Source: Lysobacterales bacterium (lineage in GTDB: Bacteria; Pseudomonadota; Gammaproteobacteria; Xanthomonadales; SZUA-5). Taken from it: a stretch of 64,000 bases of DNA. Numbering within the stretch: position 1 is the first letter of the stretch; each line of letters begins with the position of its first letter. This document shows, piece by piece, positions 28,780-59,483 of the stretch. The notes under the pieces were generated by a model. That model was not told the origin of the DNA. It saw nothing but the letters and a program-made list of their open reading frames with translations, and did no database searches. Where the stretch lies: contig JALHMH010000006.1 of the NCBI GenBank assembly GCA_022844165.1, positions 1 through 64,000 of the forward strand. The letters are read 5' to 3'. A program made the translations under genes and the position numbers.

Positions 28780-28944
28780 GATACCTCGCTCACGCACGAC
28801 CTCTGAGGTAGTGTTCGGCACGCGGCCTGCGGCGTGCCGTTCCCCATCCCCCGACTCACAAGGGCTTCAAAAGCCCACTGTGCCTGGAACAGAAATTTGA
28901 CTCGAATCGCCAAATCGCGCTCTGTCAAGAACGCCAAGAACTCT
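28780..28944 (+). repeat. Degenerate copy of the A+C repeat
   Basis: CAAGGGCTTCAAAAGCC...GAAATTTGACTCGAAT...CAAGAACTCT matches module C of 59302-59390 (reverse complement). Confidence 0.6.
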
Positions 28945-36138: not shown

Positions 36139-37863
36139 ATGTCCGCCCAACAACGCCGCGCCGATGTGCTTGCCCGAGTAGCGCACTTGCCGCTGTTCGC
36201 GGGATTGGAGCGGCGTTCGTTGGTGCGGGTCGCAGATGAGCTGCAGTGGATCGCTTTGCCAGGCGGCGCCGAGCTCTTTGCCGAAAACGATGTGCCTGAC
36301 GCGGTGTATGTGCTGGTTGCCGGTTCACTCGGTGCGTTTCGCCTGGTCGACGGCCGCCTGAAGTTGCTCGGCCGTGTGCAGCCGGGCGAAACGGTCGGCG
36401 AAATGGCGCTGTTGAGCGGACATGTGCGCACCGCGACAGTACGTGCATTGCGCGATTCGGAGGTCGTACGCTTTTCTCTTGAGGGCTTCGAGCGGCTGGC
36501 AAAACAGCATCCGGATGCGATGTTGGCGATCGCGCGCGTCGCGGTCGAGCGCCTGGAACGCACGCTGGAGGCCAAACGCCAGGATCCGCCGCCGCGCACG
36601 CTGGCGTTGCTGCCGGCGCATCCGGGCCTGGATCTCGAACCGCTGGTCGAGCGACTGGCGTACGCCATGGCGCGGTTTGGCACGGTCGCGGTTGTCGGTG
36701 CGGACGAAGGACGGGATGCGACGATTTCCGAATTGCACGATATCGAAGCCGATCATGCAAAGGTGATTTACGTCGGCAGCAGCGACCCGGCCTGGAACGA
36801 ACGCTGTCGCCGCCAGGCCGACACTTTGGTTCTGGTGGCCGACGCACGTGAACCCGCCGTCGCGATCGACGCCGCGTCAGCAACCGATGCCTATCAGGCC
36901 ATTTTGCTCGTTTTGATGCACCCAGGACGTATCGTCCCCGGCGCAGCGCGCGCCTGGCGCACGCGCCTTGGTATTGAGCAACATCTGCATGTGCGCGATC
37001 ACAACGATATCGATCGGCTGGCGCGCCACCTGGCGCATCGTGCCGTGGGTGTTGTGTTTTCGGGTGGCGGTGCGCGCGGGTTTGCGCACATCGGTGCGAT
37101 TCGCGCCATGCGCGAGGCAGGCCTGGCGATCGATTCGGTCGGCGGTACGTCGATCGGTTCGTTGATGGCGGCCGCGATCGCGCTCGAATGGGAAGACGAT
37201 CTCATCCAGAGCTGCTTTCAGCGCTCGTTTGTGGCGACCAATCCACTGTCGGATTACACCATTCCGCTGGTGGCGCTGGTCGCGGGGCGTAAGGCTTCGC
37301 GTCTGCTGCGGCGGGAGTTTACGGAGATCGATATCGAAGACCTGCCGTTGCCGTTTTACGCGGTCTCGGCCGATCTTGCGGACGGTCGCAGTGTGGTGCA
37401 TCGCAGCGGCCCCTTGTGGCGCGCATTGCGCGCGTCTATCGCGATTCCCGGCGTGTTGCCGCCGGTCTGCCAGGGCGGCAAAGTGCTCGTCGACGGCGGT
37501 GTGATCGACAATCTGCCGATCGCGGCGATGCGCAAACGCCACCACGGGCCGGTCATCGGCATCGATATTGCCGGCAACCACGCGCTGGCAACGGATCTGG
37601 ATGAAACCGATCTGCCCTCTGCATGGGCGCTGCTGATGGCGCGCTGGCGCGGCCACCCCAAACGTCCCGGTATCTTGCGCATTTTGTTGCGTGCCGGCAT
37701 GGTCAACTCCGCCAGTACCGCCGAAGCGAACGCTGCGATGAGCGATCTCATCGTCAAGCCACCCGTCGACAACATCGATCTGTTGGCCTGGCAACGCTTC
37801 GAAGATGCGATCGCAAGCGGCTATGCGCACACTCGCGCGGCGTTGGCGAAGGCGACGCTGTGA
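36139..37863 (+). CDS. cNMP-binding patatin-like phospholipase (NTE family)
   Basis: cNMP domain (GETVGEMALL..RTATV), GGGARG, GTSIG, DGG. Confidence 0.92.
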   Translation: MSAQQRRADVLARVAHLPLFAGLERRSLVRVADELQWIALPGGAELFAENDVPDAVYVLVAGSLGAFRLVDGRLKLLGRVQPGETVGEMALLSGHVRTATVRALRDSEVVRFSLEGFERLAKQHPDAMLAIARVAVERLERTLEAKRQDPPPRTLALLPAHPGLDLEPLVERLAYAMARFGTVAVVGADEGRDATISELHDIEADHAKVIYVGSSDPAWNERCRRQADTLVLVADAREPAVAIDAASATDAYQAILLVLMHPGRIVPGAARAWRTRLGIEQHLHVRDHNDIDRLARHLAHRAVGVVFSGGGARGFAHIGAIRAMREAGLAIDSVGGTSIGSLMAAAIALEWEDDLIQSCFQRSFVATNPLSDYTIPLVALVAGRKASRLLRREFTEIDIEDLPLPFYAVSADLADGRSVVHRSGPLWRALRASIAIPGVLPPVCQGGKVLVDGGVIDNLPIAAMRKRHHGPVIGIDIAGNHALATDLDETDLPSAWALLMARWRGHPKRPGILRILLRAGMVNSASTAEANAAMSDLIVKPPVDNIDLLAWQRFEDAIASGYAHTRAALAKATL

Positions 37864-39610: not shown

Positions 39611-40251
39611 GACCATCCATCGGCAAACGTGGGCGTTTGATTTTTGCCGGTATCGATGCGCTGCTGCCGTTGCTGGGAATACTCTGCTTCGGCTGGTCGG
39701 CCGTGGCTTATGTGATCTGGTTCCTGGCCGACTGTGTGCTCGTGCCAGCGGGTGCAGTCGCCCGCCGCGTGCAGTTCCAACTCCATGGCTTCGATCCTGG
39801 CCCAGAGGCGAATTGGGTGGATCACGCTTCGTTGTGGCTGGCGCCAGTGCTGACGCTGGGTTTGTTCGCACTGGTCATGGGCGCAGGGCTGGCGGCATTC
39901 CTGGTGCCGTTGATTTTGTTTTCCAACTGGTGGCCAGCCATCGTTGCCGCTTGGCACAGCGAGCTGTTTTTCGCGATCGTTTCCAGCCTGGTGCTCCAAA
40001 CTTTCGCCACGTTGCGACCCAGCCAGCCGCTGAAATCGATTGAGGCGGCGTTTGCCCAGGAACACCAAAGCGCATTGCCGTTGGCCTTGGCCTTGATCGT
40101 GATGCCAGGCGCCATTGCCGCTGGCGCGGCGCTCGGACAGAGTGGCTTGATGATCGTCGCTACGGTCGCTTCGGCGCTGCGCCTGGTGTTGGCCTGGTAT
40201 CAGGAATCGCGCGCGCCCAGCGATGAGTCAGCGCCGCCACGGCGGCGGTGA
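39607..40251 (+). CDS. Hypothetical membrane protein
   Basis: 5-6 hydrophobic segments; GTG start overlaps the upstream stop. Confidence 0.6.
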
Positions 40252-43125
40252 AGAAGCGCGGGCGTGGGTCACAATGGCGTGGCCCTCCAAGCGCAATGCA
40301 TGCCGCGCAGCATTCGCGATCGAATCGGCATCGACTTCGAAAAAGCGCCGCAGCGCCGCGCGCGTGTCGCTGCGGCCGAAGCCGTCGGTGCCGAGCGTGA
40401 CGTAGCGGCGTGGCACGAAGGCGCGGATCAGCTCGGGCAGTGCGCGGATGTAATCGCTCGCCGCGATCACGGGTCCTGGCAGGTGCTGCAGTTGCTGCGT
40501 GACCCACGGTGTGCGCGGCTCGTCGTCGGGCGCGAGGCGCGCGAGGCGTTCGCATTCGATGCCATCGCGGTGCAGCTCGGTCCAACTGGTCACGCTGAAG
40601 ACGTAGACGTCGATGCCTTCGGCGCGCAGCGTATCGGCCGCGCGCAGGGCTTGCCCAAGAATCGGGCCGGAGGCGAGCAGGCTCACGGTGGGTGGCGGTG
40701 GCGGATCGTTCGCCGGTTTGGGGCCACGGCGTTTGAGTTTGGCGAGTGCACGCGTTTCGATTTCGCGGATGCGTTCGCGCGTGACGTCAAACTGCGCAGC
40801 GACCTCTTCCAACGTCGTGTCCCCCACGTTGCCGATGTCTATTCCAAGTTTCTCCTTGAGGACGCGTCGTTCGCGCTCGGATAAGTTGAAGCTCGGCGAC
40901 AGCCGGTACATACCGCGCAGAACACCATCTCGGACGGACGCGTCTGTTGTTGGCGAGAGCGCGGCAAGCCAAGCCGCGGGCAGCGACGGCTGCGCCGCAT
41001 TCTCGTTGCACACCGTCAAGTAATAGAACACATCGTTTTGCTCAACCAACATCTCCTCAATTCCGCGCTCCACGATCAGCGCCACCTCATACGCAAAAGC
41101 CGGATCGTAGGCGCGGCAATTGGGCACGCCAGCAAATCCCAGATGGCTCGATCCATCCTGATGCTGCAGTCCCTCGCCGCCCAACGTGGTACGTCCGCTG
41201 GTCGCGCCGAGCAAGAATCCCCGCGCGCGCTGATCGGCGGCGGCCCAGATCAAATCGCCGACGCGTTGCCAGCCGAACATCGAGTAGTAGATGTAGAACG
41301 GCAGCATCGGCAAATCGTGCGTCGAATAACTGGTCGCCGCTGCGATCCAGGAACTGATCGCGCCGGCCTCGGAGATGCCTTCTTCCAGGATCTGGCCGCT
41401 CTGCGTTTCGCGGTAATAGAGCATCGAGCCCATATCCTCGGGCTCGTACTTCTGGCCGTGCGGCGCGTAGATGCCGACCTGACGAAACAGACTGGCCATG
41501 CCGAAAGTGCGCGCCTCGTCGGCGACAATCGGCACCACGCGCGGGCCGATATGCTCGTCTTTCAGAAGGTTGCCGAGCATGCGTACGACCGCCATCGTCG
41601 TCGACATTTCCTTGCCGTTGGCTTCCAACGCAAATGTCGCAAAGCTCGCCGCGCTGGGCGCCGGCAATCTCTCGCTGCTGCGCTGGCGCCGCCGCGGCAG
41701 ATAGCCGCCGAGCGCCTCGCGGCGCGCGTGCAGATAGCGCAGCTCCGGGCTGTCCGGCGGCGGCGCGTAAAACTTGACCGCATCGACATCGCTATCGGAG
41801 AGCGGCAGCGCGAAACGGTCGCGAAATCCGCGCAGCTCCTCGCTATCGAGCTTTTTCTGCTGATGCGTGGTCATGCGACCTTGCCCGGCTTTGCCCATGC
41901 CGAAACCCTTCATCGTTTTTGCCAGCACCACGGTCGGCTGGCCGCGATGCGCAATTGCTGCCGCATAGGCCGCATGCAGCTTGCGCGCATCGTGCCCGCC
42001 GCGGCGCAGGCGATCGATATCGGCGTCCGACAAACCATCGATCAGTCGCGTCAACTCCGAGCTTTGGCCAAAGAAGCGCTCGCGGTTGTAGGCGCCATCG
42101 TTCGCCGAAAACGTCTGGAACTGGCCATCGACCGTTTGTGCGAACGCGCGCAGCAATTCGCCGCTGCTATCGCGCGCGAACAGCGCGTCCCAATCCGATC
42201 CCCACAACACTTTGATCACATGCCAGCCGGCGCCGGTGAACAGCGCCTCCAACTCGTCGATCACGCGCGAATTGCCGCGCACCGGACCATCGAGCCGCTG
42301 CAGATTGCAGTTGATCACGAAAGTCAGATTGTCGAGGCCTTCGCGCGCAGCGAGCGACAGAGCGCCGATCGACTCGGGTTCGTCCATCTCGCCATCGCCA
42401 AAAAAACCCCAGACGCGACGCCCTCCGCCGGCGTGCAATCCACGGTGCTCCAGATAACGCAGAAATCGCGCCTGATAAATCGCGTTGATCGGGCCCAGGC
42501 CCATGGAGCCGGTCGGGAACTGCCAGAAGTCCGGCATCAGCCATGGGTGCGGATAGGAGCACAGTCCGGGTTGATCAATCTCGCGTCGATAGTGATGCAA
42601 GCGCGATTCCGGCAAGTAGCCTTCCAAATAAGCCCGCGCATACACACCGGGCGCCGAATGCGGCTGCAGGAACACCAGATCGCTGCCGTCGGGATGTTCG
42701 GGGCCTTTGAAGAAGTGATGAAAGCCGACCTCGAACAAATCCGCCGCCGACGCGTAGGAGGCGATATGACCACCCAACTCGCCAGCTTCGGTATTGGCGC
42801 GCACCACCATGGCCAGCGCGTTCCAACGCATCGCCGCATTGAGCCGTGCTTCCAGATCCAGATCTCCCGGATACGGCGGTTCCGCGCTGCGAGGAATGGT
42901 GTTGCAATAAGGCGTGATACGCGCCCGCGCCGAGTTCACACCGCGCGTCAAAGCGTGATCGGCGAGCCGGTCGAACAAGTACTGCGCGCGTGCCTTGCCG
43001 CCGCGCGCGACGACGCTATCGAGCGCCTCTAACCACTCCTGCGTCTCCGCCGGATCGTCGTCCATCGCGCTCGATGCGATCGCCAGTGCGCGTATCGCTG
43101 CGGGTGGGAAATCGGCTGGTTGCAT
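40228..43125 (-). CDS. mdeB: Homodimeric 2-oxoacid dehydrogenase E1 (MdeB/AceE type) with inserted sigma-70 region 4 domain
   Basis: [76 protein letters not shown]; insertion at 40690-40899. Confidence 0.9.
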   Translation of the reverse strand: [965 protein letters not shown]

Positions 43126-43217
43126 GGCGATGCTCTGCGGTGAACTGGCGCGAAGCATAGTGTGGCGGAGACTCGATGCGACTGGCCGCTTGTGCGATGG
43201 GCGTGCGCACGTCAAAC

Positions 43218-43721
43218 TCAGCTTAACCAGCGACGAGCGTCCTTTAACAACAACAGCCACTGCTGTGGCCGCAGTGGCGAAACGACGAACCCAAAGCGCG
43301 AGTAGAACTTTTCCGCACCTTCATCGATAGGGTGCGTCAGAATCGCGCGGATACCTGCCTGTTCGGCAACTTTCATTGTGCGGCGGATTGCATCTTGCAG
43401 CAATCCGATTCCGATTCCACGCCCGTGCCGGTGCTGCGACACCGCCAATCGCGCCAGAATCACGACAGGAATCGGATATTGCCCCAGCCCTTTGCGGATG
43501 CGTTCGGGTACCTCCAGCACATCGACCTGGCCGACAGTCAAGCTGTAGTAGCCGACCACACGAGCATCGTCAGAAACGACGAAGGTCTTGGCCGACCCGC
43601 TGGCTTGCGCTTGTCTGGCGTGGCGCGTCAACCAATCGTTGAGCGAGTGTTTGCCGCAGTCAAATCCTTCGAGAGTGTGGCCCGCATTCAGCGGCTCGGG
43701 TTCGCGCAAAATCACGCCCAA
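43218..43721 (-). CDS. GNAT-family toxin (TacT/AtaT-like)
   Basis: FDCG..SLNDWL, VVGYYSL, PVVILARLAV, GRGIG, FYSRFGF. Confidence 0.9.
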   Translation of the reverse strand: MGVILREPEPLNAGHTLEGFDCGKHSLNDWLTRHARQAQASGSAKTFVVSDDARVVGYYSLTVGQVDVLEVPERIRKGLGQYPIPVVILARLAVSQHRHGRGIGIGLLQDAIRRTMKVAEQAGIRAILTHPIDEGAEKFYSRFGFVVSPLRPQQWLLLLKDARRWLS

Positions 43722-43999
43722 GGCGCCTTGCGCGAAAACAAATCGCGCAAGCCCTCATTAACCTGTTCGGGTTGCTCCAGCAGCGTCAACAGCGCTTGGT
43801 ACTCGCTGCCAGTGACCATAAATATCCGCTGGTCCAGCAAAGTTTGCTCGGCCGCCAAACAAGCACTGTCGAGAATGAAGTCCGTTAGCGACTTGTGCGC
43901 CAACTCAGCTGCACGGCGCAGTACAAGCTCTTGTTGTTGAGTAGCGCGTAGCCCCAAACGAGCAGTTCGAGCCGAAGGTGAAGGAGCGACTACGTTCAT
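43712..43999 (-). CDS. DUF1778 RHH antitoxin (TacA/AtaR-like)
   Basis: RLGLRAT...RRAAE...SLTDFILDSACLAAEQTLLDQR...KAPW; overlaps the toxin start. Confidence 0.9.
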   Translation of the reverse strand: MNVVAPSPSARTARLGLRATQQQELVLRRAAELAHKSLTDFILDSACLAAEQTLLDQRIFMVTGSEYQALLTLLEQPEQVNEGLRDLFSRKAPWA

Positions 44000-44028
44000 G
44001 ACTATTCTGATCGTTAATGCAGTCGCTA

Positions 44029-44049
44029 TGTTAGTACAAATGACAAACA
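44029..44049 (-). promoter_or_regulatory. Putative autoregulatory operator of the DUF1778-GNAT module
   Basis: Imperfect palindrome TGTTTGTCATTTGTACTAACA 30 bp upstream of the antitoxin start. Confidence 0.35.
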
Positions 44050-44126
44050 TCATCCAGCGTGTACTTCAACGACGAACAACTGGGTATCGTCGCAATCACT
44101 AGAGCATCGCTCAAGGAGCAGATCGT

Positions 44127-45515: not shown

Positions 45516-45815
45516 CAGGTTTTGAGAAACAGCCTGCTGGTGCGAACCATGGAGGGTTCGCACATGGATCTTGAGTCCTTGACGGAGCCGGATCTGTACA
45601 TTTGAGTCAAATTTTCTGCGCAACGGCTTTGGCAGTTGAAGCCCCCTTGAGTACAAGGGGGGTGAGGATCGGCGCTTACACGCCGCAAGGCGTGTGCCGA
45701 GACGAACGACCGGCGGCTGTGCCGCCGGGCCGGAAATGCGGAGCGCGGGGCTGTGGCGAGCACGCTGTCGGACGAAGCCAGCAATGCTCGGCGGTCCGAG
45801 GCGAAGCCTCGCTAG
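45513..45815 (-). repeat. Long composite repeat: module A + spacer + module C + 3' half of module B
   Basis: Minus strand runs from CTAGCGAGGCTTCGCCTCG through CCCCCTTGTACTCAAGGGGG to GCGAACC..GGTTCGC...GTTTCTCAAAACCTGCTA; overlaps the MBL stop codon. Confidence 0.85.
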
Positions 45816-59301: not shown

Positions 59302-59483
59302 GAGTCCTTGATGAAGCTGGATCTTGTCATTTGAGTCAAATTTTCGTCGGTGCGGCTTTGGCTGTTGAAGCCCCCTTGAGTACAAGGGGGCGATTGAGCG
59401 CGCAGCGCTCAATGGGGGTTTTGGCAAGTACGGTGTCTGGCGAAGCCAACAATGCTCGGCGGTCTGAGGCGAAGCCTCGCTAG
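59302..59483 (-). repeat. Modular palindromic repeat, A+C copy
   Basis: CTAGCGAGGCTTCGCCTC ... ATTGAGCGCTGCGCGCTCAAT ... CCCCCTTGTACTCAAGGGGG ... AAATTTGACTCAAAT ... TCAAGGACTC. Confidence 0.85.

Follow-up and report, generated by a model that had tools for sequence, protein, structure and literature searches.

A sigma70 region 4 domain inserted in frame in an accessory 2-oxoacid dehydrogenase E1 of Lysobacterales

How does a piece of the primary sigma factor come to lie in the middle of a metabolic enzyme, and what, if anything, keeps it there? The question is raised by a gene in a 64,000-nucleotide stretch of a Lysobacterales bacterium (assembly GCA_022844165.1, contig JALHMH010000006.1, positions 1 to 64,000), hereafter the window, whose genome, G000, is a 99.97%-complete draft of 59 contigs. 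The gene encodes an MdeB-type 2-oxoacid dehydrogenase E1, and a sequence-only reading of the window had proposed that a domain resembling sigma70 region 4 (sigma4), with its helix-turn-helix (HTH), is inserted in this enzyme. Judged by sequence homology, the insert is a genuine RpoD-type Sigma70_r4 domain, placed in frame in an otherwise intact E1. We found it to be a real, vertically inherited domain insertion.

The insert and its host gene

The public-database version of the E1 (P0003, 965 amino acids) starts at M46 of a longer open reading frame (ORF). The features of the gene, in the order of the protein, are as follows (ThDP, thiamine diphosphate).

40228..43260, minus strand: longer ORF with an alternative upstream start, 1010 amino acids
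40228..43125, minus strand: gene of the MdeB-like homodimeric 2-oxoacid dehydrogenase E1 (TIGR03186), 965 amino acids from M46 plus stop
42187..42819, minus strand: Transketolase_N, the ThDP-binding N-terminal domain, which contains GDGE (Pfam, P0001 residues 148-358)
40987..41649, minus strand: PDH_E1_M, the middle domain, ending just before the loop (Pfam, residues 538-758, 325.7 bits)
40690..40899, minus strand: 70-residue in-frame insert, made of an N-terminal linker (SPSFN), the sigma4 module and a Pro-rich C-terminal linker (ORF translation, Pfam, phmmer against the PDB)
40816..40884, minus strand: region-4.1-like half of the module, equivalent to sigma70 551-~571, with a 2-residue insertion in the turn (phmmer mapping)
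40732..40815, minus strand: HTH half of the module, equivalent to sigma70 ~572-599, with the recognition helix ...[12 protein letters not shown].KLK (invariant columns)
40690..40731, minus strand: Pro-rich linker ([14 protein letters not shown]) between the module and the C-terminal domain (translation)
40330..40695, minus strand: Transketolase_C_1, the transketolase-like C-terminal domain (Pfam, residues 856-977)

The Pfam profile Sigma70_r4 (PF04545) matches residues 793-843 of the E1 with 41.7 bits (cut-off 24.1), between PDH_E1_M and Transketolase_C_1. The insert taken alone reaches 48.9 bits, and its best NCBIfam matches are RpoD models. Its sequence and position are as first read: the 70 residues stand between GMYRL and TVSLLASG, and the E1 motifs GDGE, [9 protein letters not shown] and GTDGFGRSD are all intact and in frame. 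Insert residues 6-57 align to residues 551-600 of E. coli sigma70 (phmmer against the PDB, E about 1e-9 to 1e-11), and the turn between regions 4.1 and 4.2 is longer by two residues. The same alignment bears out the claim that the equivalents of R584 and E585 are kept and that Q589 is replaced by E; R586 and R588 are kept as well. The E1 has no Pfam match to Sigma70_r2, Sigma70_r3 or Sigma70_r1_2. As region 4 is the only part matched, the protein carries a sigma4 domain and is not a sigma factor. The module is thus homologous to region 4 of RpoD across the entire domain (E. coli 551-600), with the hydrophobic core positions kept. It differs from it in being outside any sigma factor, without regions 1.2, 2 and 3 and without the tail after residue ~600, in carrying the shared derived states Q589E and M561E, and in evolving fast.

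The whole E1 scores 1529.4 bits with the NCBIfam model TIGR03186 (cut-off 1408.3). The canonical aceE is a separate gene on another contig (G000:C50), with 1447 bits for TIGR00759 and 1290.2 for TIGR03186 (below the cut-off), and the sole TIGR01348-type E2 above cut-off sits on a third contig. By these profile scores, the module-bearing gene is an accessory E1 paralogue and not the canonical aceE, with the decarboxylation of 2-oxobutyrate (or another 2-oxoacid) as its putative activity. Like the members of TIGR03186 and AceE (TIGR00759; 1l8a), it is full-length, with the three domains and the ThDP motifs intact. Unlike the E. coli E1 (1l8a), it is 74 residues longer between E. coli positions 703 and 726, such that the loop between shared anchors spans 96 residues instead of 22. 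Full-length E1 representatives from diverse sources, 29 in number, all lack an insert here; their loops are only 8-17 residues long.

A chimeric contig fusing E1 and rpoD sequence would produce a similar picture. The draft state of G000 and the damaged-looking copies in three related genomes (G001, G022 and G016, described below) could be taken to favour such an artefact. The junctions are nevertheless bridged by contigs made with a different assembler from runs that may include the source sample. A 578-nucleotide Logan contig from run X1 covers positions 40445-41022, i.e., both junctions, with 0 differences, and a contig from run X4 spans 40513-40733, i.e., the junction on the 40690 side. Five public sequencing runs are listed with this DNA, four from one drinking-water metagenome study and one, with a small share of it, from freshwater; none of the five is an RNA run. 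Moreover, the module is only 62% identical in amino acids and 60% in nucleotides to region 4 of the rpoD of G000, with no DNA duplicate, and independent genomes and metagenomes carry orthologues of the insert at this very codon position. An assembly or annotation artefact is thus effectively refuted.

Origin and distribution of the module

The same architecture, which the sequence-only reading had suggested looking for, was found in relatives, and the insert is therefore not unique to G000. Using the 261 residues that surround the loop as a query, we searched 39 related genomes and then read the loci. Another genome of the same genus (G001) has a module that is 80% identical in amino acids to that of the window. 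In G020 and G022 (genus g8) and in G002 (genus g2), the module lies between two inverted arrays of tandem heptamers, (GGGACTC)n to its left and (GAGTCCC)n to its right, and the reading frame runs through the whole. The module of G020 has a 5-residue deletion in the region 4.1 half, and the genome copy of G022 has lost 2 nucleotides near its 3' end; a database protein of the G022 type (P0193, 1009 amino acids) is intact and carries the module. Six other proteins (P0004-P0009, 985 amino acids), from metagenome-assembled genomes that the sources name Rhodanobacteraceae, Lysobacterales or Xanthomonadales, are E1s of the G020 type with the module. In G007 (g7), a single array lies at the loop and there is no module, and the g5 and g6 genomes have the plain short loop, also without the module. 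The copy in G001 is peculiar: at locus L015 (G001:C75:8673-12236), the module and the C-terminal domain share one 477-residue frame, and the E1 core (about 570 residues) is missing, as is a homologous 5' end, which makes it a gene remnant or a misassembly.

We then scanned for carriers with a DNA pattern for T-R-[EQ]-R-I-R-E-I-E (hereafter RIREIE), for which reversed-pattern controls gave 0 matches. The pattern matches once each in G000, G001, G020, G022 and G002, always in this gene. Carriers thus amount to 5 of the 25 genomes of the family, in three genera, and to 5/399 in the order, with 0/374 in its other 11 families. One match per carrier, confined to the E1 gene, rules out a multi-copy mobile sigma4 element. 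In metagenomes, the pattern picked out 47 stretches, one of which (L162) encodes a full-length E1 whose module is identical in protein sequence to that of G001; the others encode ordinary sigma factors or small sigma4-like ORFs, or match by chance. Among the best 120 of 423 matches to the module protein, 118 are sigma factors. A GTDB-wide scan with the module alignment found at least 80 loci; the 80 kept were all rpoD-like, since one of the two peptide patterns used also fits ordinary RpoD, and the scan thus says nothing about further carriers.

Some of the metagenome contigs hold other sigma4-like frames. Four of them (L128, L136, L148 and L158) have 173-residue frames with a tail resembling the sigma4 recognition helix (...[20 protein letters not shown]...) and an N-terminal part that is QueD/PTPS-like by eye only. 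Small sigma4-only frames occur in L133/L144, L130/L159 and L152.

The module derives from rpoD. Its region 4 identity to the RpoD of its own genome (G000:C30) is 62% at the protein level and 60% at the nucleotide level (59% by tblastn), and no other DNA in G000 resembles the insert; this rules out a recent self-duplication from the genome's own rpoD, or a chimera with it. The G022 module is closer to the region 4 of the family's RpoD (79% in amino acids, 73% in nucleotides). In RpoD itself, the last 191 residues are 99-100% identical across the module-bearing and sister genera, and region 4 is almost invariant across beta- and gamma-proteobacteria. All the modules share a state absent from RpoD, the E at Q589 (giving RIREIE), and the copies that keep the stretch have an acidic residue at the M561 position. 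These shared derived states, together with the homology to rpoD, indicate that the module is an old, single-origin derivative of the primary sigma region 4, spanning about residues 545 to 600 of sigma70 without the C-terminal tail. Codon usage had also been read as a hint of a separate origin. The codons named then (TTA, ATA, CGA and CTT) do occur once each among the 70 of the insert, vs 1, 1, 4 and 3 times in the other 896, but the GC content (0.61) and the GC content at third codon positions (0.686) are no outliers, since 20% and 13%, respectively, of the equal-sized windows in the gene are as low. The composition of the insert is thus within the range of the gene and says little about origin, for which the evidence is the homology to rpoD.

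In the sister genera, the sigma4 piece occupies the middle of a palindrome of inverted heptamer repeats. Such heptamer arrays form a repeat family dispersed throughout the genomes of g8 and g2, with 60-294 pattern matches in each of G002, G022, G008 and G020, and are absent from G000 and G001 (0 arrays). The window's insert has none of the terminal inverted repeats present in G020, G022 and G002; its Pro-rich linker occupies the position of the right heptamer arm of the sister genera. The window's genus lost the arms, and the module is joined there by short linkers, one of them Pro-rich. Other elements of the family (L035-L046, in G022 and G020) have the form (GGGACCC/GGGACTC)3-4 ... (GGGTCCC/GAGTCCC)3-4 around unrelated centres of 70-110 bp. 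The idea that heptamer palindromes habitually capture gene fragments is not supported: 11 centres are mutually unrelated bar one 12-nucleotide match, and all three centres tested are unique in G022, although old captures are still possible. We found no description of these palindromes in the literature searched. In sum, an rpoD region 4 fragment entered the loop between the middle and C-terminal domains of the E1 in the ancestor of three genera of one Xanthomonadales/Lysobacterales family.

Selection on the module and its possible function

We used Nei-Gojobori counts on codon alignments to compare the rates of nonsynonymous (dN) and synonymous (dS) substitution. Between the window and L162, its closest full-length relative, the module (51 codons) is 80% identical in amino acids, with dN 0.136, dS 0.69 and dN/dS 0.20, and the proportion of nonsynonymous differences (pN) is lower than that of synonymous ones (pS; Fisher p=7e-5). 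The upstream part of the E1 (702 codons) is strongly constrained in the same comparison (97% identity, dN 0.018, dN/dS 0.025). For G022 and G002, the module has dN/dS 0.07 (p=7e-10), with dS saturated, and all the other pairs also have pN<pS (p<=3e-5). The neutral evolution that the sequence-only reading had named as a sign of a tolerated passenger was hence not seen (dN/dS 0.07-0.20, p<=7e-5).

Conservation is uneven along the module. Among five copies, 17 of the 28 columns of the HTH half are invariant, vs 2/24 in the region 4.1 half (Fisher p=1e-4; without G020, 18/28 vs 7/24, p=0.014), and pN/pS in within-clade pairs is 0.11-0.13 in the HTH half and 0.35-0.44 in the region 4.1 half. Among the positions that never vary are the equivalents of T583, R584, R586, R588, E591 and K597, which lie at the surface in sigma4 structures. 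The first four, on the DNA-facing surface in structures of sigma4 with -35 DNA, are kept even in G020, despite its deletion in the region 4.1 half. Keeping DNA-facing residues is beyond what purely structural constraint would need. The codon comparisons thus indicate purifying selection on the module, focused on the HTH, for the window's lineage as well as for the clade of G022 and G002.

These patterns lead us to favour, tentatively, a selected role of the module in binding through its HTH, with DNA as the preferred candidate ligand. The low dN/dS at the surface of the recognition helix suggests that the helix still binds something, and the module would be kept for this purpose. Isolated sigma4 binds -35 DNA, and the likeliest ligand would be DNA of the -35 (TTGACA-like) type. 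The change of Q589 to E need not be inactivating, since E at this position (RIREIE) also occurs in natural sigma factors. The relaxed region 4.1 half argues against binding to the core RNA polymerase, and the E1 would not act as a sigma factor. Being a homodimer, it would display two HTHs and might be a regulator akin to trigger enzymes or a DNA-tethered enzyme. Trigger enzymes, of which PutA is the classic case, are enzymes with a built-in DNA-binding domain, and the E1 of Azotobacter vinelandii was reported to bind promoter DNA. The window's E1 resembles trigger enzymes in combining, as judged by homology, a metabolic enzyme and a DNA-binding-type domain in one polypeptide. It differs in that this unit is an internal, sigma-derived insertion instead of a terminal ribbon-helix-helix or winged HTH domain, and in that the regulatory role is only putative. 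A bolder version, close to the one first proposed for this locus, seems unlikely: the two HTHs, on -35-like DNA, would couple the 2-oxoacid/ThDP status to transcription in a new class of trigger enzymes, with the heptamer palindromes as the vehicle that moved a folded domain into the loop.

The binding role must be weighed against a rival explanation that is about as plausible, in which the rpoD fragment came with, or inside, a selfish palindromic repeat into a permissive surface loop, has no function of its own, and is under selection only for a compact, soluble fold that lets the E1 fold and assemble. We place the binding role only slightly ahead, and the two are nearly tied. Many observations count against a binding role. 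The loci as read indicate that the module is repeatedly degraded or lost in other lineages. In g8, G016 has the arms with a truncated and frameshifted module that splits the E1 gene, G008 and G040 have the arms with only a ~30-nucleotide spacer, in frame, and G018 has a plain short loop with no trace of the module. P0219, a JGI protein of 966 residues with a 25-residue gap in the E1 N-terminal domain, has a module only 41% identical to that of P0193 (20/49 of the sigma4 core), with R586 and R588 replaced and a Sigma70_r4 score at the threshold (24.0 bits); outside the loop, the two proteins are 94% identical (821/870 aligned residues). A phylogeny of the E1, built without the loop (606 columns, 11 rows, G001 and G007 left out), separates the plain g5 and g6 genes as a clade (100/100) and puts all the arm- or module-bearing genes and the plain gene of G018 in one poorly resolved group, where the arms-only gene of G008 pairs with the module-bearing one of G020 (91/60). 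One gain followed by erosion and losses fits this tree, which does not prove it. The module also evolves 2.5-7 times faster than the E1 core, its dN between the window and L162 is reached by only 1.2% of the 51-codon windows elsewhere in the gene, and it changes fast in the very genera where the true region 4 of RpoD is 99-100% identical. The gene neighbourhood is not conserved, and neither an accompanying regulator nor a target is found near the E1.

Structure prediction did not yield a confident canonical HTH. AlphaFold2, given a 44-row alignment, models the E1 with confidence (mean pLDDT, the per-residue confidence, 86.8; pTM, the predicted TM-score, 0.86), and the module within it poorly (pLDDT 49-64), with helices at 750-760 and 772-799, the latter a single long one. 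Predicted alone from a 27-row sigma4 alignment, the module reaches a pLDDT of 75.7, with helices at 8-18 and, unbroken, 30-57. Its best Foldseek match is 1tlh_B, the complex of sigma70 region 4 and T4 AsiA (query TM-score 0.40, root-mean-square deviation 11 Å), and no match has E<=1e-3; AsiA remodels sigma4. The label sigma4 is therefore based on homology, and the predicted folds neither confirm nor refute a canonical HTH. The loop itself is a permissive landing site, as heptamer repeats without the module occur in it and in other linkers. Such repeats are in frame, for example, in the corresponding loop of the canonical aceE paralogue of G022 and in a linker that follows a lipoyl domain (the elements of the family in G022 include L045, G022:C49:14300-15100, and L044, G022:C6:99590-99860). 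A precedent is given by the palindromic elements of Rickettsia, inserted in frame in genes and with no known role (MITE review, PMC10969869). The insert of the sister genera resembles these elements in being bracketed by inverted repeats of a genome-wide, in-frame family. It differs from them in its arms of tandem heptamers, in the 11 unrelated centres compared, in the single-copy sigma4 centre and, for the copy in the window, in the lack of arms.

The patchy distribution of the module, restricted to one family of the order sample, also speaks for a passenger. Several lines of evidence are nonetheless difficult to reconcile with this reading. Purifying selection is detected in two independent clades, at dS>=0.7, and the constraint on the HTH half extends to residues that are solvent- or DNA-exposed in sigma4. 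In the window's genus, where the arms and the whole repeat family were lost, the module was retained and trimmed near the domain borders. Finally, the bacterial deletion bias should purge a useless 210 bp, as in G008/G040 and G018. A role as a sigma4 mimic that acts on proteins is improbable: the module would bind the beta-flap of RNA polymerase, an anti-sigma factor or an activator of class II type, and the E1 would compete with the housekeeping sigma factor or titrate its partners. Its RpoD type would suit this, as would the positions that activators target, for the K597 equivalent is invariant, that of R599 is always K and that of K593 is K or R. However, region 4.1, which forms much of the pocket gripping the beta-flap, corresponds to the relaxed half of the module, part of which G020 has lost; E stands at the M561 position in the four copies that keep the stretch; and the R596 equivalent is A in 3/5 copies. 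The Rsd/AlgQ family, proposed earlier as a target of a decoy, has no member found in G000, which removes that target.

In the literature searched, we found no account of a sigma4 domain within an E1 or any other enzyme, in line with the earlier remark that no such fusion was known. The broader kinds to which it may belong are already known: domain insertions, in-frame palindromic elements and possibly trigger enzymes. If the module binds DNA, it would represent an unreported way to build a metabolic regulator, by reusing sigma70 region 4 in an enzyme, and the intact, truncated, arms-only and insert-free versions of the gene among relatives would be a natural experiment. Even as a passenger, the locus documents that a domain of an essential gene was copied into another protein, that a surface loop of E1 tolerates 70-140 extra residues and that a family of heptamer-repeat palindromes lies in frame in proteins. 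Such loop tolerance, domain copying and in-frame repeats are of use in protein engineering and help to explain the origin of domain insertions.

Neighbouring genes and a dispersed repeat

For some TIGR03186 members, the genes described as neighbours are mdeA (methionine gamma-lyase) and that of an Lrp-type regulator. Beside the window's gene, we found no mdeA, E2 or E3, and the earlier observation that no Lrp regulator is adjacent holds for the six neighbouring ORFs scanned. A profile scan identified, on one side of the E1, genes for a patatin/cyclic-nucleotide-binding protein, TerB, a PALP enzyme and an unknown ORF. The first encodes a patatin-like phospholipase (36139-37863, plus strand) that has a cyclic-nucleotide-binding domain at its N-terminus and also an NTE P-loop-like domain. 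The other side, directly upstream of the E1 gene, holds a toxin-antitoxin pair, i.e., a TacT-like GNAT acetyltransferase and a TacA-type antitoxin (43218-44053, minus strand), which is not at the equivalent position in the relatives examined. The neighbours of the E1 vary among L162, G020, G002 and G018.

A search for a dimer-type DNA target singled out TTGAC-N22-GTCAA, which occurs 67 times in G000 against a background of about 4. It was ruled out as the target of the module because it belongs to a repeat specific to G000 that does not track the carriers: allowing at most 1 mismatch, G000 has 75 copies of the repeat, and the 24 remaining genomes of the family, among them the same-genus G001 and the other module carriers, have 0. 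The family is ~70 bp long, with the core TTGAC-N22-GTCAA followed by GGAC(TCTAG), and has the look of miniature inverted-repeat transposable elements or repetitive extragenic palindromes. Three copies lie in the window, at ~28897-28928, 45575-45610 and 59304-59339.

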